From sequence record SRR33789315_95: a stretch of DNA of 64,000 bases; one strand, 5' to 3'. Position 1 is the stretch's first letter. Each line of letters begins with the position of its first letter. Position numbers and translations under genes: made by a program. The notes beneath the pieces were generated by a model that ran no database searches, was not told where the DNA came from, and saw only the letters and a program-made list of their open reading frames with translations. Shown in pieces: positions 56,165-64,000 of this stretch.

Positions 56165-56195
56165 CTTAATTAACACTTAAAACTACATTTTGAAT

Positions 56196-57566
56196 ATGAA
56201 AAATATTAACAAATTAATTGTGTTTGCACTTTTGGTTTTTATTGGAACCTTTTCTGCTAACGCACAGGATGAAAATAACCCGTGGGCTTTAAATTTTGGT
56301 ACTAACGCAGTTGATTTTTCATCTGCTGGAGGTGATGAATCATGGAACGCTGGGATGTTTGACGAATTTTTCAACACAGATCATTTTAATATACTTCCTT
56401 CTATAGGTTATTTAGAAGTAGGAAGATATGTAGGGAATGGTTTTAGTGTAAGTGCTATGGGAAATTTAAATCACATAGATATTTTAGGAGATGCCTCGGT
56501 TTCTCAATTTACTTACATGTCACTTGACGCTGGGGTTTCATACAGTTTTAAAGATATTTTAAAATCTAACTGGTTTGATCCATCATTAGGTGTAGGTGGT
56601 GGTTATACTTGGCTTGAAGATTGGAGACCTAATTCTGCAACTGGAAATGCTGCTCTTGGGTTTAAAATATTATTATCAGAATACTTTAACATAAACGTAA
56701 AATCAACTTACAAACACCCATTTAACGATAGAGGTTACAACCATTTTGTACATACAGTGGGTCTTGGTATCGTGTTTGGCGGTACAGATACTGATGGTGA
56801 TGGTATCTACGACAAAAATGATGAGTGTCCAGAAGTATTTGGTTTAGCTGCTTTTAACGGTTGCCCTGATACAGATGGTGACGGTATTAAAGATTCTTTA
56901 GATGCATGTCCTACTGTTGCTGGTCCTCCAGAATTAAACGGATGTCCTGATACTGATGGTGATGGTATTGCAGATAAAGATGATATGTGTCCTAATGTTG
57001 CTGGTCTAGCTGCTCTAGGTGGTTGTCCTGATGCTGATGGTGATGGTGTAAAAGATGGAGATGACAAATGTCCTAATGAAGCTGGTCCTGCAGAAAATGA
57101 CGGTTGCCCATATGTAGATACAGATGGTGATGGCGTTCTTGATAAAGATGATGACTGTCCAACTGTAGCTGGTCCTGTGGCAAATAATGGTTGCCCAGAA
57201 GTAACTGTTGAAGCTCTTGAGGAATTAAACATGCAAGTGCGTTCAGTTCTTTTTGATTTAAACAAAGCTAAAATTCGTCAAGAATCTGAAGAAACGCTAG
57301 ATGCTGTTGCAGATGCTATGAAAGCTTATCCTAATACAAGCTTCTTAGTAGAAGGGCACACAGATAGTACAGGTAGTGCTAAATACAACAAGCAATTGTC
57401 AAAAGAGCGTGCTGCCTCTGTTATGACCTATTTGGTAAATAAAGGAATAGATGCTGAAAGACTTTCTTCTGAAGGATTTGGTGAAGAAAGACCGGTAGCA
57501 AGTAATAATACCAATGCGGGTAGACAACAAAACAGACGTGTAGAGCTATCTCTTATTGAAGACTAG
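56196..57566 (+). CDS. OmpA family protein with thrombospondin type-3 Ca-binding repeats
   Basis: Signal peptide, beta-barrel, five DxDGDG...CP repeats, GHTD...LS..RA...NRRVE. Confidence 0.93.
56787..57197 (+). repeat. Five coding TSP3 repeats (~81-nt period)
   Basis: GATAC(T/A)GATGGTGA(T/C)GG-like units encoding D(T/A)DGDG..D..D.CP...G....GCP. Confidence 0.9.
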
Positions 57567-57589: not shown

Positions 57590-57616
57590 AAAACGCTCCA
57601 CAATGTGGGGCGTTTT
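57590..57616 (+). terminator. ompA terminator
   Basis: AAAACGCTCCAC-AAT-GTGGGGCGTTTT. Confidence 0.85.
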
Positions 57617-57629
57617 CTATTTTTATACA

Positions 57630-60344
57630 ATGACGACATTCATAGATGAGCTTAAACAATCACTTATCCAGGCCAACATCCCTTTTGAGAAACTTACGGT
57701 GGTTTTACCCTCAAAAAGAGCTGGAACTGTTTTAAAAAACAAACTTGTTCAAGAGATACCTTCAGAAAGTAGTTTTTTACCTCAAATCATAGGTATAGAA
57801 GAATTAATAGAGGACATGTCTGGTCTAAGTTCTTGCGATTCTTTAGAGCTTTTACTAGAGCTTTATTCGGTTTATGCACAGTATTCTACTCAAACCAATA
57901 AAGATTCTTTTTTAGAATTTATGAGTTGGGGCCAAACCTTACTGGCAGATTTTAATGAAATTGATCATTATTTAATAAACACAACTGATTTTTTCAACTA
58001 TTTAAAAGCGGTAAAAGACCTAAATCACTGGTCTCTTCAAGCAGATGAAAAACCCTTAATAGCAGATTATATTAAGTTTTGGCACACATTACCTGATTTG
58101 TATGCACAACTAAACAAGACACTTCTGGCCGAAAATAAAGGCTATCAAGGTATGTTGTATAGAAAAGCAGCAGAACGTGCTAATATTTATATTTCTGAAG
58201 AGCAAGGTCATTTTGTTTTTGCCGGTTTTAACGCTTTAAATGCGGCCGAGCAGCTCATTATTCAGGAATTTCTAGAGCAAAAAAAAGCTGATATCATTTG
58301 GGATATTGACACGCATTTTCTTTCAGAAAGCAATAATGCAGTAAGCCATTTTATTAAGAGTTATTATAGGAATTGGCCACAACTTAAAGATCAAAATCTC
58401 CAACAAATAGGCCGAAACAATTTCAATACTAACAAAACTATTTTCACTTATAGCGCTGCCCAGCAAATAGGCCAAGTAAAATGGGTGGGTAATTTGTTAG
58501 AAAACCAATCAACCGAAGAACTTCAACAAACCGCTGTGGTTTTAGGGGAAGAAAGTCAACTATTACCGCTTCTTAATTCGCTCCCAGAAAATGTTCAAGC
58601 GCTAAACGTAACTATGGGAATCCCATTAAAGCAAATTCCGGATACTGCATTTTATTCGGCTTTGTTTCAAATGCAGCAAAATAATAATACCTCACGTTAC
58701 CATTATAAAGATGTTCTCGCACTTATCAATCAGCCATTAACCAAAAGACTTTTGGGCACCTATTGTGACATTATTAAAACCCAATTGGTCAAAAACAACT
58801 ATACCTACATCCCTGTTCAAAAATTAATAGAGTTATGTGCTCCTATAGAAAACATAGCTAGCGCGCTATTTGCACTGTGGGAAAATAATTCGGGTACCGC
58901 ACTTTTACAGATTAACTTCTTAATTAAAGAACTTAAAAGCACCCACGCTACCCCAAACCGTTTTCTGCAAATTGAGTATCTCAATAGATTTGAAAAACTT
59001 TTTAGCAGACTACAAGAGCTCGTGCTCAAGTATTCCTTTATAAGCAGTGTTAAGGCACTCGCACTGTTTTATGAAAGTCTTCTAGCCGAAGAAACACTTG
59101 ATTTAATAGGAAGTCCCTACACGGGATTACAAATAATGGGTGTGCTAGAATCCAGAACTTTAGATTTTAAAAATGTTATTATAACTGCATTAAACGAAGG
59201 CACATTACCTTCTGGAAAAACACAAAACAGTTACATTCCTTTTGATCTTAAAGTAGAATATAAACTGCCTACTTACCGAGAAAAAGATTCCATTTATGCC
59301 TATCACTTTTTTAGGTTATTGCAGCGGGCAGAAAATGTTCATCTTTTATATAATAATCAAGCTGAAGGATTGTCTAGTGGTGAAAAAAGCCGCTTTATCC
59401 TACAACTCGAAGCTGACCAAACCGCAAATTTCAACTACAAAGAAATTGCTGTTGTAGCGCCTACTATACTAAAACAAACCCAGCTCAAGCACATTGAGAA
59501 AAGTCCAGCTATTCTAGAAAAATTGGCAGCTCATGCGCAATCTGGATTTTCGCCTTCGGCACTTACAACCTATATTAGAAACCCCTATGATTTTTATACT
59601 AGATATGTTTTAGGCGTAAAAGAAGTAGAAGAAGTAGAAGAAACCGTTGCTTTTAATACGTTGGGTACCGTTGTACATCAGGCGTTAGAAAATTTATATG
59701 ATCCTTTTTTAAATACCATGCTTTCAGTCCCCATTTTAGAGCAAATCTTAAAAAAAGTTCATCAGGAAGTACACCAGCAATTTGAAAAAGAATACGGACT
59801 AGAAAATCTTGAAACGGGAAAAAACCTCATTATTTTTAATGTCGCCAAGCAGTTTGTTATCAATTTCATTCAGATGGAAAAAAGAGCCATTGAAGACGGT
59901 AACACCATAGCCATTAAAGAGCTGGAAGCCAACTATAAAATAGGTTTCACGACTAAATTGCACAGCGTAAATCTGCGAGGTTCTATAGACCGAATAGATC
60001 TTTTTAATGATACACTGCGCATTATAGATTATAAAACCGGAAGAGTTGAGCCTGCACAATTAAAAATAAACGACTGGGATTTATTAATAGAAGACTATAC
60101 CTATTCTAAAGCTTTTCAAGTACTTAATTACGCCCTTTTATTATCTAAATCTGGGCTTCTTACTCCAAACACCGAAGCTGGTATTTTTTCTTTTAAAAAC
60201 ATAGGAAGCGGGTTTATGAAATTTAACGAAAATAAAAATTCATATATAACCGAAGAGGTGTTACAGCGTTTTGAAATTGAATTGGGTTTTTTAATCGATG
60301 AGATTTTAGATCCTGAAAAGCCTTTTATGGAAAAACTTACTTAA
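57630..60344 (+). CDS. addB: AddB-like inactive helicase + PD-(D/E)XK nuclease
   Basis: VLPSKRA, AGFNAL, MGVLESR, SPSAL, GSIDRID...DYKTG, QVLNY; start ATG 57630. Confidence 0.85.
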   Translation: MTTFIDELKQSLIQANIPFEKLTVVLPSKRAGTVLKNKLVQEIPSESSFLPQIIGIEELIEDMSGLSSCDSLELLLELYSVYAQYSTQTNKDSFLEFMSWGQTLLADFNEIDHYLINTTDFFNYLKAVKDLNHWSLQADEKPLIADYIKFWHTLPDLYAQLNKTLLAENKGYQGMLYRKAAERANIYISEEQGHFVFAGFNALNAAEQLIIQEFLEQKKADIIWDIDTHFLSESNNAVSHFIKSYYRNWPQLKDQNLQQIGRNNFNTNKTIFTYSAAQQIGQVKWVGNLLENQSTEELQQTAVVLGEESQLLPLLNSLPENVQALNVTMGIPLKQIPDTAFYSALFQMQQNNNTSRYHYKDVLALINQPLTKRLLGTYCDIIKTQLVKNNYTYIPVQKLIELCAPIENIASALFALWENNSGTALLQINFLIKELKSTHATPNRFLQIEYLNRFEKLFSRLQELVLKYSFISSVKALALFYESLLAEETLDLIGSPYTGLQIMGVLESRTLDFKNVIITALNEGTLPSGKTQNSYIPFDLKVEYKLPTYREKDSIYAYHFFRLLQRAENVHLLYNNQAEGLSSGEKSRFILQLEADQTANFNYKEIAVVAPTILKQTQLKHIEKSPAILEKLAAHAQSGFSPSALTTYIRNPYDFYTRYVLGVKEVEEVEETVAFNTLGTVVHQALENLYDPFLNTMLSVPILEQILKKVHQEVHQQFEKEYGLENLETGKNLIIFNVAKQFVINFIQMEKRAIEDGNTIAIKELEANYKIGFTTKLHSVNLRGSIDRIDLFNDTLRIIDYKTGRVEPAQLKINDWDLLIEDYTYSKAFQVLNYALLLSKSGLLTPNTEAGIFSFKNIGSGFMKFNENKNSYITEEVLQRFEIELGFLIDEILDPEKPFMEKLT

Positions 60345-60346
60345 GT

Positions 60347-61090
60347 TTAATCTTTACAAAAATACTTTGTAACGATATAGGGAGTGATGGGCTTAAGCGC
60401 TTTTCCAGTTTCAGGATGTAGCCCTAGTGTTGTGAAAATTTCAAGCGTTCCTTCAGGATTTTTTCCATACCAAGTTTTCACGTTTCCGTCAGGATTAAAG
60501 AATTGAATAGTACAATTGGGCTCTAATTTTTTAAACTTCAAAATACGGTCTTCTTTGTAAATTTTCAGTTTTCCTGCACTCAAAAGATCCTCGCTAAAAT
60601 CTGCTTCTTCATAATGATCTTTTTCCCAAATCATCCATTGTTGTTCTTCTTTAAATACAAAAACAGAAACGATGATCATTAAGCTTATGCCTAATAGTCC
60701 TATAAGTAAGTTGCCTTTATGCTTAATAAGCCAACTTTTTATAAAAAGAGGCTTAGTCGTTTGCTCCTTTTCAATATTCACAAAAGGGGCAACCTCATCC
60801 TTTTTAAGAGAACGTATAAAATCCTCATACGAGTTAAATTCTAAGTAGTTTAATAATGCGTTAATAACATCTAATTGAGCAATCCTTATGTCTTCTTTCT
60901 CATTTTTTAAAGCCTCATTATAGTAATCTCTTAATCGCTTTTCCCCAAACTTAAAATGCGCATTTTCAGAAATAGCATCAGAAATAGCTGTGGCCATAGC
61001 CGTCTTTGAGGGATTTTTATTCCCTTTTTTTAACTCTTCTCTTTCCGCTTTTTCAAAAGCCTGAAGTATCAATTTTTTATGACTCATCAT
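60347..61090 (-). CDS. Bitopic membrane protein: helical (HTH-like) N-domain, TM, small periplasmic C-domain
   Basis: One TM (LLIGLLGISLMIIVSVFVF); N-terminal helical region ending INALLNYLEFNSYEDF; C-terminal GLHPETGKALKPIT with two Cys. Confidence 0.7.
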   Translation of the reverse strand: MMSHKKLILQAFEKAEREELKKGNKNPSKTAMATAISDAISENAHFKFGEKRLRDYYNEALKNEKEDIRIAQLDVINALLNYLEFNSYEDFIRSLKKDEVAPFVNIEKEQTTKPLFIKSWLIKHKGNLLIGLLGISLMIIVSVFVFKEEQQWMIWEKDHYEEADFSEDLLSAGKLKIYKEDRILKFKKLEPNCTIQFFNPDGNVKTWYGKNPEGTLEIFTTLGLHPETGKALKPITPYIVTKYFCKD

Positions 61091-61158
61091 GGTGAGTTAG
61101 CGTATTCTTTTAGATTTTAAATCTATCAGAAAAATCTCGGAAATACATTAGAATTTGA

Positions 61159-61196
61159 TTTCCAGCATGTTTCCAAAACCTTTCCCACTGCTTTCC
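61159..61196. promoter_or_regulatory. Four TTTCC direct repeats at 11-bp period (putative regulator binding array)
   Basis: TTTCC starts at 61159, 61170, 61181 and 61192. Confidence 0.7.
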
Positions 61197-61295
61197 AATA
61201 CTATTTTACAAATCTCCTTTCATTTGTTTCAGAATTATTCACACCCCATATGCAAATGGGTTTTGCAATGTGTTCAAGTTCTAAAAATGGAGTTG

Positions 61296-61437
61296 TGGTT
61301 GATGTTGATTTGACCATTTGAGAAGTAATCAAAGCTTCATCTGCTACACTCCTACTTCTCAATCGAAGAGAGACGTCTCTTTCCATTAAACAATGCGATA
61401 ATCTGTCGTGAAAAACTGAAAAAAATAATTCGGACAG
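61296..61437 (+). other. Multi-hairpin structured 5' leader (candidate cis-regulatory RNA)
   Basis: Stems TGGTTGA/TTGACCA, TTGAGAAGTA/TACTTCTCAA, palindrome AGAGACGTCTCT, CTGTC/GACAG. Confidence 0.5.
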
Positions 61438-61468
61438 CCACAGGTATGTCCAAATAAAACATACAAAA

Positions 61469-61627
61469 ATGAAAAAAATAACACTTATTCTATTTACGGT
61501 TTTCCTCAATATAGGACTCTATTCTTGTACTCCAGAAGTTATTAAAGAAAATACTATGCCTCAAGCCTGTTGTGGAGAAGATATTCCTTTTCCACCACCT
61601 CCTACAGATAGTATTCCTGATAACTAA
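61469..61627 (+). CDS. Small (52 aa) lipoprotein/peptide absent from the ORF track: MKKITLILFTVFLNIGLYSCTPEVIKENTMPQACCGEDIPFPPPPTDSIPDN
   Basis: Hand translation; A-rich context before ATG; MKK + hydrophobic core + lipobox LYSC; TAA at 61625-61627, 29 nt before the kinase ATG. Confidence 0.85.
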   Translation: MKKITLILFTVFLNIGLYSCTPEVIKENTMPQACCGEDIPFPPPPTDSIPDN

Positions 61628-61656
61628 TATCTTTTGATTAATTGTATTTTAGAGGA

Positions 61657-63327
61657 ATGGAAATCAAAAAGAAATCATTCCTCTTTTTTTTTATAAGAAT
61701 AGTTCTTTTATTCTCTTCCACATATGGTGTTCATGCAAACAAGTTAGTATTCCAAAAAACAGATAGTGGTGCCTATTATTACAAAGTAATTATAGAAGCT
61801 GAAAATCGCAACGATTTCCAAAAGGCAATTTCTTACTACTTAAAACAGTATCAAAAAAATATTGAGGAGAAAAAGACTTCTAAAGCCGCCAACGACTTAG
61901 AAATATTGGCAACTGGTAAATACAATGTCGGAAGTTTTAATGAAAGTGAGCAGTTCCTTATTTCTGCGGCAAAACTTTATGCAAAAGACACTACAAATAA
62001 TGCAAATTTAGCCAGGAAACGAATATATACTCGGTTAGGTATTATTTATCGAAATCTTAAATATTATGATAAAAGCCTAGAGTTATACAAAACCGCTTTG
62101 AAAACTGCTAAAACAAAATCAGACAGCCTATACATTATCAATAACATTTCAAATGTTTTGCGCGAAAAGGGCAGTTATCATCAAGCCATTGATACCTTAA
62201 AATACATAGTACATTCTACAGGTCTCTTAAATAATAACATATTAAAAGCCTTGGCCTTGGACAATCTGGGGTATACTCAACTTGAAATTTCAGATAAGAA
62301 TAGTTTACATAACCTTAATGAATCACTTAAAATAAGAATGCTCATTAAGGATTCGTTGGGTTTATTTTCTAGTTATAGGCATTTATCTATTTACCATAGA
62401 AAGATAGGCGACAAAAAGGTGGCTTCTGATATGGCAAAAAATGCTTTTGTTATAGCTAAAAAACTTAAAGACCCAAATTACGAATTTGAAGCCCTGGGTT
62501 TACTTGCTGAACTGAGCCCTGACAAAAATTTAAAAAGATTCAAATTGCTAAACGACAGCCTAACGCTAGCAGATCACGAGCAAACAAATAAATATGCTAC
62601 ATTAAAATATGATGTAGAAAAAGAAAAAGAACAGACTCAAATAGCCAAATTACAAAGTGAAAAAGAAAAGCAACGAAAAACAGTTTACTTAGCTTTAACA
62701 CTAATTCTCACGCTTATTTTTAGCGCAATAACCGCACTCATCCTTTCTAACCGTAAGAAAAAACAACTTAAAACCATATTTGATACCGAAACTCGTATAT
62801 CTAAAAAATTACATGACGAGTTGGCAAATGATACTTTTCAGGTCATGGCTCAACTTCAAACACTAAAAGAAATTCCCAAAGAAATAATTGATGATCTTGA
62901 TAAAATTTATACTAAAACTCGTGACATATCAAAAGATCATAACCCACTATACAAAGACATTAACTTTTATGAGCAACTTACTACAATGTTGGCCTCTTAT
63001 AAAAGAGCAGATTTTAATGTGATGGTTAGAAATGACCAAAAAATAGAATGGGACTCCCTAAAATATTTAAGAAAGAAAACCATTTATATCGTGCTAAAAG
63101 AGTTAATGACCAACAATAGAAAACATAGTCAATCAAATTTTGCCTTAATAACATTTAGCCAAAAAGGTAAAAAACTAAATATTATTTATAAAGATGACGG
63201 TATAGGTGGAATATTTTCTAAAAGCAATGGGCTTCAAAATGTGGAATCCCGCATAGAAGCCCTAAACGGAACACTTACATTTGATGCTGAACCAAATAAT
63301 GGTTTTAAGGTTATAATCCAGATATAA
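61657..63327 (+). CDS. TPR-repeat sensor histidine kinase (HisKA_3 type)
   Basis: N-terminal signal/TM, TPRs (IYTRLGIIYR, IINNISNVLR, ALDNLGY), TM, H-box RISKKLHDE, ELMTN, DDGIG, GLQN; start ATG 61657 (TTG 61642 alternative). Confidence 0.92.
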   Translation: MEIKKKSFLFFFIRIVLLFSSTYGVHANKLVFQKTDSGAYYYKVIIEAENRNDFQKAISYYLKQYQKNIEEKKTSKAANDLEILATGKYNVGSFNESEQFLISAAKLYAKDTTNNANLARKRIYTRLGIIYRNLKYYDKSLELYKTALKTAKTKSDSLYIINNISNVLREKGSYHQAIDTLKYIVHSTGLLNNNILKALALDNLGYTQLEISDKNSLHNLNESLKIRMLIKDSLGLFSSYRHLSIYHRKIGDKKVASDMAKNAFVIAKKLKDPNYEFEALGLLAELSPDKNLKRFKLLNDSLTLADHEQTNKYATLKYDVEKEKEQTQIAKLQSEKEKQRKTVYLALTLILTLIFSAITALILSNRKKKQLKTIFDTETRISKKLHDELANDTFQVMAQLQTLKEIPKEIIDDLDKIYTKTRDISKDHNPLYKDINFYEQLTTMLASYKRADFNVMVRNDQKIEWDSLKYLRKKTIYIVLKELMTNNRKHSQSNFALITFSQKGKKLNIIYKDDGIGGIFSKSNGLQNVESRIEALNGTLTFDAEPNNGFKVIIQI

Positions 63328-63993
63328 ATGTTTAAAAGGATACTTATTGCAGAAGATTTTGGGAGTATTACTAAAATGCTTCAGGATCTTTTCAACGAAT
63401 TAGGTGCTGATCAGGTTGATTTTACGCAATACTGTGATGATGCCTATTTAAAAATTAAAAGTGCTATTAATAAGAAAGAGCCCTATGATTTGTTAATTGC
63501 AGATCTCTCCTTTAAGCCAGACTACCGTACCCAAAAATATCCCTCTGGTGAAGATTTGATAAAGGCAGTACGGCAAGAAAATCTGGAGATGAAAATAATT
63601 GTTTTTTCTATGGAAGAAAAATTACAACGGGTAAAAAGCCTTATTATAGAGCAACAAGTAAACGCTTACGTTTGTAAAGGTCGCAATGGGGTAAAGGAGC
63701 TTAAAGAAGCTGTTAAATACTGCATCCAAAATAAAACGTACCTGTCTCCACAAGTTTCTCAAGCTTTAAATAAAACTAGAACTCTAGAAATTCAAGATTA
63801 TGATATTGAGCTCATGCGCTATCTGGCAGATGGATATTCTAATAAAGAAATTAGTTTACGTTTTGAAAAACTCAAAATGAGTCCCAGTAGTGTAAGTTCT
63901 ATTGAGAAACGATTAAACAGACTTCGCATTCAGTTTAGTGCAAACAATGCCACTCATCTTGTGGCCATTGTAAAAGATTTAGGATTGATATAA
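63328..63993 (+). CDS. Response regulator, REC + LuxR/NarL-like HTH
   Basis: ILIAED, phosphoacceptor ADL, FS, CKG; GYSNKEIS...SSIEKRLNRLR...HLVAIVKDLGLI; abuts the kinase. Confidence 0.92.
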   Translation: MFKRILIAEDFGSITKMLQDLFNELGADQVDFTQYCDDAYLKIKSAINKKEPYDLLIADLSFKPDYRTQKYPSGEDLIKAVRQENLEMKIIVFSMEEKLQRVKSLIIEQQVNAYVCKGRNGVKELKEAVKYCIQNKTYLSPQVSQALNKTRTLEIQDYDIELMRYLADGYSNKEISLRFEKLKMSPSSVSSIEKRLNRLRIQFSANNATHLVAIVKDLGLI

Positions 63994-64000
63994 TTTAGCA

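Follow-up and report, generated by a model that had tools for sequence, protein, structure and literature searches.

A conserved 52-residue lipoprotein-type peptide of marine Flavobacteriaceae, encoded upstream of a sensor kinase with a predicted periplasmic TPR domain

A small gene at 61469..61627 (+) of the window, the 64,000-nt stretch of DNA analysed here (SRR33789315_95), encodes a 52-aa lipoprotein-type peptide of a conserved, unnamed family of marine Flavobacteriaceae. In every locus examined, the peptide gene lies directly upstream of a histidine kinase with a periplasmic (by topology) 7-TPR domain, followed in nearly all of them by a LuxR-type regulator. We consider the peptide to be a putative ligand or co-sensor of this kinase (probability about 0.5), with binding itself inferred. 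In addition, a conserved structured RNA of ~155 nt with two pseudoknots and no Rfam match precedes the peptide gene. The features of the region are as follows.

60347..61090 (−): divergent 246/247-aa membrane protein, with a predicted N-terminal five-helix XRE-like HTH domain (about 1-100), one TM (about 125-147) and a C-terminal periplasmic beta-rich domain with two conserved Cys
61139..61197 (+): array of TTTCC boxes at 61159, 61170, 61181 and 61192 (exact 11-nt phasing), preceded by an inverted GGAAA at 61139; likely regulator binding sites in the divergent promoter region
61219..61226 (+): TTCATTTG, a box resembling the Bacteroidetes −7 promoter element, a few nt before the start of the RNA model
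61230..61385 (+): conserved structured leader RNA with helices P1, P1a, P2, P2-outer and P3, pseudoknots PK1 and PK2, and a terminal hairpin at 61367-61382
61386..61468 (+): rest of the leader, with variable hairpins and a conserved GGACA...UGUCC hairpin (61432-61451) just before the A/U-rich stretch and the ATG
61469..61627 (+): peptide gene; signal peptide aa 1-19 (61469-61525), lipobox Cys20 (61526-61528), Cys34-Cys35 (61568-61573) and Pro42-45 (61592-61603)
61657..63327 (+): sensor histidine kinase; signal peptide aa 1-27, periplasmic TPR domain aa 28-340 (61738-62676), TM about aa 343-365, HisKA_3-type His386 and HATPase_c; a TTG at 61642 is an alternative start
63328..63993 (+): response regulator with a receiver domain and a LuxR/GerE-type (DUF5932) output domain

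The peptide gene is real and under purifying selection

The ATG-started ORF encodes MKKITLILFTVFLNIGLYSCTPEVIKENTMPQACCGEDIPFPPPPTDSIPDN. An earlier note, made from the sequence alone, had described a 52-aa lipopeptide with lipobox Cys20, a mature part of 33 aa, vicinal Cys34-Cys35 and a proline run near the stop, and this observation was confirmed in each of these respects. Its description of the gene as hidden was only partly true, because gene callers do call it and public records name relatives "hypothetical protein" or, in UniRef, "Lipoprotein". Pfam, NCBIfam and PADLOC gave no family for the peptide, and the ESM Atlas gave only unnamed Bacteroidota clusters.

The ORF is far more than a chance occurrence. 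A pattern scan of one genome per species identified 30 loci with the same architecture. A profile search of 1.84 billion representatives returned 172 proteins at E<=1e-3 and 33 at E<=1e-10. The peptide was found in 91 of 301 sampled genomes of the family Flavobacteriaceae, whereas no match was found outside that family in a 401-genome sample of the phylum. Of 150 listed representatives, P0102 (a 657-aa repeat protein) was dropped as a false hit, leaving the 149 used below; P0157 (481 aa) sits in a peptide cluster by a clustering error.

Purifying selection, whose absence had been named beforehand as a ground for rejecting the proposal, was detected. The invariant residues (Cys20, Pro22, Ala, Cys, Cys, Gly, Asp and the prolines) are written with 2-4 synonymous codons across the 31 genes. 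Moreover, pN was below pS in 465 of 465 pairs, and dN/dS was 0.09-0.45 in 12 of the 13 close pairs computed and 0.85 in one (loci L008/L024).

The peptide carries a conserved lipobox and a core motif with fixed spacing

The N-terminus has the features of a Sec/signal peptidase II substrate. In the window, MKK is followed by the hydrophobic stretch ITLILFTVFLNIGLY, and M-K-K is invariant or nearly so in 31 sequences. Cys20 follows L-Y-S, within the 15-35 residues from the start that are typical of a lipobox. A PROSITE-style lipobox pattern matched 128 of 149 representatives, with S (119), A (8) or G (1) at position −1; the other 21 still carry the lipobox Cys preceded by S (Y in one) and followed by T. 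Positions +2 and +3 are T/S and P in most members. The surface-export signal of Bacteroidetes lipoproteins, a polar or Lys residue followed by two or more acidic residues within +2..+6, must lie next to the Cys (PMC5080379). Only 37 of 177 family members have two consecutive acidic residues there, and the window (T-P-E-V-I) has none. Lipidation and orientation are inferred from these sequence rules only.

Following the lipobox, members share a short variable linker and an acidic core, usually PQACCG[DE]D, followed 6-7 residues later by a proline run. The gap from Cys-Cys to the proline run is 6 or 7 residues in 94 of 108 cases. Tandem duplicated cores occur in the representatives P0017, P0113 and P0123.

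The earlier note had read the mature part as a linker plus a linear motif and offered three alternatives: a ligand of the TPR groove, a redox or metal switch at Cys-Cys, and an EF-P-sensitive stall coupling lipoprotein export to kinase translation. This interpretation was supported in part: the general reading of a short lipoprotein-type peptide functionally tied to the kinase was borne out and the first alternative is compatible with the evidence, whereas the second was neither established nor excluded and the third found no support.

With respect to Cys-Cys, the pair is invariant in 31 of 31 loci of the window's subfamily, although this set was partly ascertained with the pattern PQACCG[DE]D, and it is present in 122 of 149 representatives, always in the context CC-[GDS]-acidic. 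The peptide might itself be the sensor, with Cys-Cys next to acidic residues reporting periplasmic redox state or binding a metal, and the kinase or the membrane HTH protein reading its state, resembling NlpE reporting to CpxA. The fact that the core is more conserved than the kinase would be expected if it recognises a universal chemical. However, 27 of 149 representatives replace Cys-Cys by T-G, T-E or similar and yet keep the acidic core and the same neighbourhood, indicating that the pair is frequent but dispensable. A disulfide partner in the kinase's outer domain was rejected, since this domain has no conserved Cys and 20 of 29 domains have no Cys. We regard this explanation as unlikely.

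With respect to the proline run, 122 of 149 representatives have 3 or more prolines, a median of 5 residues before the stop, and these could stall ribosomes unless EF-P is active, tuning kinase translation with the peptide product being secondary. However, run length varies from 1 to 11 and is under 3 in 27 of 149, and the whole amino-acid sequence, not only the proline run, is under purifying selection. In the window the last Pro codon lies 54 nt before the kinase ATG, beyond the reach of a stalled ribosome, and the stop-to-start gap is about 20-70 nt in relatives. Such a translational device is very unlikely.

The peptide gene lies upstream of a TPR sensor kinase in every locus examined

The kinase lies directly downstream of the peptide gene in 30 of 30 loci and in 20 of 20 loci of a second set, and the regulator follows in 29 of 30 (L012 is cut inside the kinase) and 19 of 20. 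Pfam and NCBIfam identified the domains of the regulator. In the kinase, Pfam detected TPR_12 (E 3.9e-10) and related families. HisKA_3 and HATPase_c scored below the Pfam cut-offs, but His386, the H-D-E-x-A-N box and the N/G boxes are invariant in an alignment of 29 sequences, and NCBIfam gave a UhpB-like match (E 1.4e-9) over 388-559. These features agree with a TPR-containing HisKA_3 kinase with a NarX/UhpB-like core. According to the alignment and hydropathy, the order is signal peptide, TPR domain, single TM helix and kinase core, which places the TPR domain in the periplasm.

The structure model of the TPR domain (pLDDT 88, pTM 0.79) has 14 helices. Its best Foldseek matches are the TPR domains of LGN/Pins, KLC1 and Rap solved with bound extended peptides (E 2.5e-7 to 3e-5; among them 4a1s, 3ro2, 4wnd, 6swu and the Rap-Phr structure 6t46), suggesting a peptide-binding-type fold.

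Whole modules are duplicated: second copies in one genome carry their own peptide, kinase and regulator, as in genome G099 (loci L072 and L073). Kinases that follow Cys-Cys peptides form one clade with SH-aLRT 100, and the peptide type needs 2 changes on the kinase tree against about 14 for shuffled labels, although this was a quick tree in which related rows share labels. On the other hand, the core has a mean pairwise identity of about 0.90 across genera, whereas the kinases are only about 0.37 identical to each other. A co-evolving ligand-receptor pair would be expected to drift together, so the core may instead contact something more conserved. Charge complementarity was also considered and rejected: mature peptides are always acidic (net −2 to −19), but the TPR domains range from net −8 to +19.

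The divergent membrane protein is a further conserved neighbour

The divergent gene was present in 28 of 30 loci by clustering, 26 of 30 by tblastn and 15 of 20 loci of the second set. Pfam, NCBIfam and PADLOC gave no family for its product. The structure model (pLDDT 88) showed no PDB match at E<=1e-3 with Foldseek. VIA-align of residues 1-100 gave almost only XRE-family HTH proteins in the top 50, at modest Z of 5.5-4.2, with the C-terminal domain barely covered by this comparison, and the nearest ESM Atlas cluster is named HTH domain-containing. As the model shows a confident periplasmic beta-rich domain with two conserved Cys, this protein could be the true partner of the peptide, with the kinase sensing something else. 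However, it is missing or not detected in 5 of the 20 loci, whereas the kinase is never missing, and in Dokdonia only its C-terminal domain is similar. This alternative is unlikely.

Clustering of all ORFs of the 30 loci showed that only these four gene families are conserved. The genes downstream of the regulator in relatives are small and varied, and no modification, protease, processing, export or transporter gene is conserved. This argues against a precursor of a modified peptide natural product or bacteriocin, which might be considered for a short Cys-containing peptide with a conserved core and in view of a weak NCBIfam match of the kinase's TPR region to a RiPP-associated TPR protein (E 1e-4, far below the cut-off). 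Moreover, the N-terminus is a lipoprotein signal, not a leader with a double-glycine or similar site, and this possibility is very unlikely.

A phased box array and a structured RNA precede the peptide gene

Across 75 upstream regions, 36 have 2 or more TTTCC boxes and 20 have 3 or more. The spacing was 11 nt 39 times and 22 nt 12 times. The promoter-like box further downstream corresponds to a conserved ATTTG column block in the alignments.

In the structured RNA, PK1 pairs the P1a loop with the 3' flank, and PK2 pairs GAGAAGU (61320-61326) with ACUUCUC (61354-61360). A structure drawn by hand on a MAFFT alignment paired 84.3% of cells, against 36-49% when slid; 38 of 51 pairs showed compensatory change, and 0 of 500 shuffles scored as high. 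A covariance model hit 61 of 75 sources at this position, with 96.5 bits for the window, and gave one hit per genome in 4 of 5 genomes. None of the 4227 Rfam 15 families matched: the best hit within 60900-61800 was 30.5 bits against a gathering score of 60, and there were 0 hits at E<=0.01 in five homologous loci. The fixed position 5' of one gene family and the covariation are as expected for a riboswitch or other cis-regulatory leader RNA.

A U-rich tract (5 or more T in 8) was found around the end of the hairpin in 33 of 62 hits, the window included by that count, although the window's Ts belong mainly to the hairpin's own 3' arm and a terminator scan did not call it. In the rest of the leader, the GGACA...UGUCC hairpin (RNAalifold pairs 247-250/261-264 of the alignment) paired 97% of cells, but with little variation. 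A long-range pairing GUGUUGC/GCAACAC in the 3' part of the leader holds only in one subgroup, pairing 65% of cells against 43% for a local alternative, and was left out of the model.

A putative ligand or co-sensor of the TPR kinase

In our preferred explanation, the product is a small secreted protein made with a Sec/signal peptidase II type signal, probably lipidated on Cys20 and probably staying on the periplasmic side of a membrane. There, its 33-residue, strongly acidic, unfolded mature part would present one linear motif, PQA-CC-G-[DE]-D-x2-3-[IL]-Pro(n), to the TPR domain of the kinase encoded 30 nt downstream, acting as its dedicated ligand or co-sensor. The kinase would pass the signal to the LuxR-type regulator, which probably feeds back on the operon through the phased TTTCC boxes, and the structured leader RNA would add further control. 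The analysis itself demonstrates the existence of the gene and the selection on it, the conservation of the lipobox, the invariant synteny, the periplasmic location of the TPR domain by topology and the peptide-binding-type fold of its model; lipidation and cleavage, periplasmic orientation, physical binding, the direction of the effect on the kinase and autoregulation are all inferred.

Alternatively, the lipopeptide or a fragment released from it might leave the cell, freely or in vesicles, and be sensed by the TPR kinase of neighbours, which would make this a quorum-sensing-like cassette like agr or comCDE of Gram-positive bacteria. The operon order of peptide, kinase and regulator, the repeated promoter boxes, the tandem cores of some members, reminiscent of multi-copy pheromone precursors, and the duplicated modules with distinct peptide types are consistent with this idea. 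However, most members lack a surface-export signal, no processing or export gene is conserved, and the core is nearly invariant across genera rather than diversified into pherotypes, although two deep peptide types do track kinase clades. This possibility is likewise unlikely.

Comparison with known systems

Envelope lipoproteins are coupled, genetically or physically, to the outer domain of a histidine kinase in NlpE-CpxA, RcsF and LpqB-MtrB. LppA is reportedly linked with ExoR-ExoS-ChvI (PMC10659215), where a periplasmic repeat (Sel1/TPR-like) protein is part of the sensing. There is no sequence relation to these lipoproteins; here the lipoprotein has only about 33 residues, is unfolded and acidic, and is the first gene of the kinase operon, and the TPR domain is part of the kinase itself.

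The agrBDCA and comCDE cassettes share the gene order, repeated boxes in a divergent promoter region and module duplication with distinct peptides. They differ in having a dedicated processing or export protein (AgrB, ComAB), a polytopic HPK10-type kinase rather than a single-TM TPR sensor with a HisKA_3 core, and a hypervariable peptide, and the present host has an outer membrane.

In the RRNPP receptors (Rap, NprR, PlcR and PrgX), a TPR superhelix also serves as receptor for a short secreted peptide encoded next door, and an XRE-type HTH is part of the system. However, these receptors are cytosolic, usually fused to the HTH, and need peptide re-import, whereas here the TPR domain is periplasmic and fused to a kinase, with the HTH in a separate membrane protein.

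The LGN/Pins and kinesin light chain domains, with seven to eight TPRs wrapping an extended peptide of 20-40 residues (acidic in the KLC1 case), are eukaryotic cytosolic proteins with 14-19% identity, so the likeness is of fold only.

The leader RNA resembles orphan structured leaders and riboswitch candidates found by comparative genomics (the CMfinder and 104-candidate papers) in its covarying helices and pseudoknots, in its fixed position before one gene family and in the hairpin plus U-tract that follows in about half of the loci. It differs from them in matching no Rfam family and in preceding a signalling operon rather than a metabolic or transport gene. A literature search for an RNA motif of this kind in Flavobacteria found nothing relevant.

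Implications

More speculatively, and with low probability, the leader RNA, the lipidated acidic Cys-Cys/polyproline peptide, the TPR kinase, the LuxR-type regulator and the membrane-anchored XRE-type HTH protein might form one self-contained envelope signalling cassette private to Flavobacteriaceae. A genome-encoded peptide as the cognate ligand of a TPR sensor kinase would be the first peptide-ligand/kinase communication system described in Bacteroidota, convergent with agr and RRNPP systems, and its leader would be a new riboswitch or protein-binding RNA class.

How the many TPR-type sensor kinases of marine Flavobacteriaceae receive their signals is, to our knowledge, undescribed, and literature searches found no description of this peptide family or of a peptide ligand for such kinases. 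Here, the candidate ligand is encoded next to the receptor, is only 33 residues long and can be synthesised, which makes the idea directly testable by binding, reporter and mutant assays. The same locus supplies a well-supported orphan structured RNA and a phased array of likely operators. Thus, one small region offers a complete, tractable regulatory circuit in an ecologically important bacterial family.

The gene and its conservation

On the + strand of the window, an ATG-started ORF at 61469..61627 encodes a 52-residue product that is exactly the one given in the earlier note, so the observation on which that note was based held. Cys20 follows L-Y-S, the mature part comprises 33 residues, and Cys34-Cys35 and Pro42-45 are in place. 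Neither Pfam nor NCBIfam contains a family for this protein. The tail also holds D-S-I (Asp47-Ser48-Ile49, 61607-61615), which fits the general O-glycosylation sequon of Bacteroidetes, D-(S/T)-(A/I/L/V/M/T), although such a short motif could occur by chance.

A word-index search identified two close relatives besides the window's own protein (3 of 3 candidates). Based on their alignment, a scan of one genome per species matched 56 stretches, of which 30 encode a relative, in 30 loci. Twenty-nine record titles name Flavobacteriaceae genera or 'Flavobacteriaceae bacterium', and one names only 'Bacteroidota bacterium'. All 30 translate to the same architecture: M-K-K, a hydrophobic stretch, [SAG]-C, [TSN]-P, a variable linker of about 10 residues, PQACCG[DE]D, a proline run and often G-G at the end. 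Because this set was ascertained with the patterns PQACCG[DE]D and [LM]FTVFLNI[GC], the invariance of those motifs within it is partly by construction. The unbiased profile search of 1.84 billion representatives returned 172 proteins at E<=1e-3 and 33 at E<=1e-10. Of the 150 listed, a 657-aa repeat protein was dropped. Among the remaining 149 representatives, 128 match a PROSITE-style lipobox pattern, whereas the other 21 still have the lipobox Cys preceded by S (Y in one) and followed by T. Additionally, 122 have Cys-Cys, 92 have CCG, 122 have a proline run of 3 or more, 95 have a run of 5 or more, and 37 end in GG. A 481-aa unrelated XRE-type protein (P0157), listed as a member of the 90% cluster of a 56-aa family member, looks like a clustering artefact of the collection.

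Selection acts on the protein. Invariant residues are written with 2-4 synonymous codons, and pN is below pS in all 465 pairs. The dN/dS ratio was 0.09-0.45 in 12 of 13 close pairs and 0.85 in the remaining pair (loci L008 and L024), whose linkers align poorly. Public records call relatives 'hypothetical protein' or 'Lipoprotein'.

In an even sample of 301 genomes of the family, 91 have a match at E<=1e-4. By our count, the match runs past the lipobox into the core, to model position 41 or beyond, in 71 genomes, whereas the rest match the signal part only and are uncertain. In an even sample of 401 genomes of the phylum, six match at E<=1e-6, and all six were already among the genomes of the family sample; therefore, no match was found outside the family in the genomes searched. 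Most genomes have one copy, and some have two.

Gene neighborhood

In the window, the peptide gene is followed by a gene for a 556-aa kinase starting 30 nt downstream (ATG at 61657; a TTG lies at 61642) and then by a gene for a 221-aa response regulator. Upstream lies a divergent gene (60347-61090, - strand) for a 246/247-aa protein without any family. In the 30 loci, tblastn found the kinase directly downstream in 30 of 30, the regulator in 29 of 30 (locus L012 ends inside the kinase) and the divergent protein in 26 of 30. Clustering of all ORFs found the divergent protein in 28 of 30, and the two others have too little upstream DNA. In a metagenome-assembled genome (L017, 5181-6839), the kinase is split into ORFs of 140 and 333 aa, which could reflect a frameshift or an assembly error.

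Beyond these four genes, the neighbors differ between loci. Relatives carry, 0.3-3 kb downstream of the regulator (L007, L009, L010, L013, L015, L023, L024 and L026), a variable run of small genes of 70-180 aa, including a recurrent 130-aa protein (one ORF cluster, in 8 loci) and small Cys-rich lipoprotein-like ORFs. This region is not conserved with the module, and the corresponding part of the window lies beyond base 64000. Two other genes of the window are as follows.

56190-57566 (+), an OmpA-family protein with a run of D-x-D-G-D-G-type (thrombospondin type 3-like) calcium-binding repeats, named from inspection of the translation and not from a family search
57603-60344 (+), a 913-aa AddB-like protein with a C-terminal PD-(D/E)XK nuclease domain (Pfam E 2.9e-25), not syntenic with the module in the 30 loci

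Twenty further places, chosen among weaker or second matches, were then examined. All 20 have a peptide followed by a related kinase, 19 of 20 have the regulator and 15 of 20 have the divergent protein. Seventeen of the peptides whose kinase could be read whole lack Cys-Cys and carry A-T-[EG]-G-D-D-G-[DE]-[IV] instead, often with an acidic rather than a proline tail. The acidic core, not the cysteines, is therefore the universal element. This Cys-less subfamily (loci L073-L090 and representatives P0048, P0074, P0081 and others) precedes longer kinases (about 600-690 aa) that form separate clades, and one genome (G099) holds both types. On a quick maximum-likelihood tree of 48 kinases, those following Cys-Cys peptides form one clade (SH-aLRT 100) of 31 Cys-Cys and 2 nested Cys-less rows. 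The peptide type needs 2 changes on this tree against about 14 for shuffled labels (0 of 500 as low), although related rows share labels. This shows that the module diversified as a unit, not that the two proteins touch.

Topology and predicted fold of the kinase

The alignment of 29 kinases shows a signal peptide (aa 1-27), about 310 residues of TPR, a coiled stretch, one TM helix (about 343-365) and a HisKA_3-type core with an invariant H386-D-E-x-A-N box and invariant N and G boxes. The TPR domain is thus extracytoplasmic, in the compartment a lipoprotein reaches. Its AlphaFold model, built from the 29-sequence alignment, has 14 helices, with a pLDDT of 88 and a pTM of 0.79. The best Foldseek matches are LGN/Pins TPR domains in complex with NuMA, Inscuteable or Frmpd peptides (E 2.5e-7 and up, TM 0.5-0.64). 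Additionally, kinesin light chain TPR with cargo peptide and Rap proteins, including a Rap-Phr peptide complex, were matched. This is a fold likeness with receptors of extended peptides and nothing more. The domain has no conserved Cys (0 in 20 of 29), and its net charge varies from -8 to +19, whereas the mature peptides are always acidic (-2 to -19, median -7).

Inferred location of the peptide and its linear motif

The lipoprotein export signal is C-X-K-(D/E)2-X in Capnocytophaga and S-D-D-F-E in F. johnsoniae, and its position next to the Cys is critical (PMC5080379). The family consensus is C-[TS]-P-[EQD]-x-[IL]-x-[DE]-[DE]. Only 37 of 177 members have two consecutive acidic residues at +2..+6, and the window's peptide has none. 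By that rule, it is inferred that the peptide would stay on the periplasmic side.

The mean pairwise identity in the 31 sequences is 0.45 for the signal part, 0.38 for the linker, 0.90 for the core and 0.58 for the tail, whereas the kinases average 0.37. The distance from Cys-Cys to the proline run is 6 or 7 residues in 94 of 108, and three representatives (P0017, P0113 and P0123) carry the core and proline run twice in tandem within one precursor. This is the behavior of a linear recognition motif. However, the high conservation of the core relative to the kinase counts against a simple co-evolving ligand-receptor pair and keeps alive the alternative that Cys-Cys acts as a redox or metal sentinel. 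The earlier note also proposed that the proline run is an EF-P-sensitive stall. This is the weakest idea, as the peptide sequence as a whole is constrained, proline runs vary from 1 to 11, and the run ends 54 nt before the kinase start.

The divergent membrane protein

The model of the divergent protein (19-sequence alignment, pLDDT 88) has a five-helix N-terminal domain, a TM helix and a C-terminal beta-rich domain with two conserved Cys. Foldseek returned nothing at E<=1e-3. The top rows of a VIA-align search with residues 1-100 are almost all XRE-family HTH proteins at Z 5.5-4.2, which is modest, and the nearest ESM Atlas cluster is named 'Helix-turn-helix domain-containing protein' (score 0.97). 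In the Dokdonia loci (L029-L031), only the C-terminal domain is similar, inside a 453-466-aa protein. The protein is best described as a membrane-anchored XRE-like regulator with a periplasmic domain, and it is an alternative partner for the peptide.

Boxes and a structured RNA in the intergenic region

The 378-nt divergent region is conserved at the DNA level and contains the following elements.

61139-61197, next to the divergent gene, TTTCC boxes at 61159, 61170, 61181 and 61192 (spaced by exactly 11 nt) after an inverted GGAAA at 61139
61219-61226, TTCATTTG, resembling the Bacteroidetes -7 promoter box
61230-61385 (+), conserved structured RNA with two pseudoknots, in the leader of the peptide operon (61230-61468, +)
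61367-61382, last helix of this RNA

Across 75 upstream regions, 36 have at least two exact TTTCC boxes and 20 have at least three, with spacings of 11 nt (39 times) or 22 nt (12 times). Phasing by one helical turn suits an array of regulator sites, as expected of a putative operator in the divergent promoter region.

For the RNA, a structure of six nested helices and two pseudoknots was written on a plain MAFFT alignment of 29 sequences. In this structure, 84.3% of cells pair, against 36-49% with the partners slid by 1-3 columns, and 38 of 51 pairs show changes on both sides. The covariation score is 0.341, against 0.19 for shuffles (0 of 500 as high) and 0.10-0.13 for slid versions. In pseudoknot 2, one pair is G-C in 16 and A-U in 13 sequences, with none broken, and frequent G-U pairs fix the strand as +. 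A covariance model of the nested part (152 positions, 39 pairs) finds one hit at the same place in 61 of 75 sources, as well as one weak antisense hit in locus L026. Of the 61, 32 were not in the seed, and loci of Cys-less peptides are among them. In the window, the hit lies at 61230-61385 and scores 96.5 bits. On the model-fitted alignment, which leans towards the structure, 39 of 39 pairs show compensatory change. In five whole genomes, the model hits once in each of four, always about 60-85 nt before the peptide's ATG, and nowhere else. Rfam 15 has no matching family.

The last helix has a U-rich tract around its end in 33 of 62 hits, by a count of 5 or more T in 8. The window passes that count mainly through the helix's own 3' arm, and the terminator scan does not call it; therefore, 'attenuator' is a suggestion and not a result. 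The single-sequence fold of 61230-61480 has z = -3.0.

Interpretation

Small lipoproteins that modulate kinases and peptide-kinase-regulator cassettes have both been described. By contrast, this peptide family, its fusion of a TPR receptor to the kinase in a diderm, and the leader RNA are not described in the libraries searched or in our text searches, which were judged from their listings apart from PMC5080379.

The gene is real, and its product is almost certainly exported with a lipoprotein-type signal. The product is too short and proline-rich to fold, and it is inherited as a unit with a kinase whose sensor is a periplasmic TPR superhelix, as predicted by topology and modeling. The analysis itself establishes the gene, the selection on it and its linkage to the kinase, whereas the lipidation and periplasmic position of the peptide, its binding to the TPR domain, its effect on the kinase and any feedback by the regulator are inferred. 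The interpretation in the earlier note was partly supported. A TPR ligand remains compatible with these data and the EF-P stall does not gain support. Less likely alternatives are a diffusible signal, the redox or metal sentinel, the membrane HTH protein as partner, the EF-P device and a natural-product precursor. The most economical mechanism, to which we assign a probability of about 0.5, is that the tethered peptide would occupy, or under some condition leave, the TPR groove and thereby set kinase activity, and the regulator would act back on the phased boxes.
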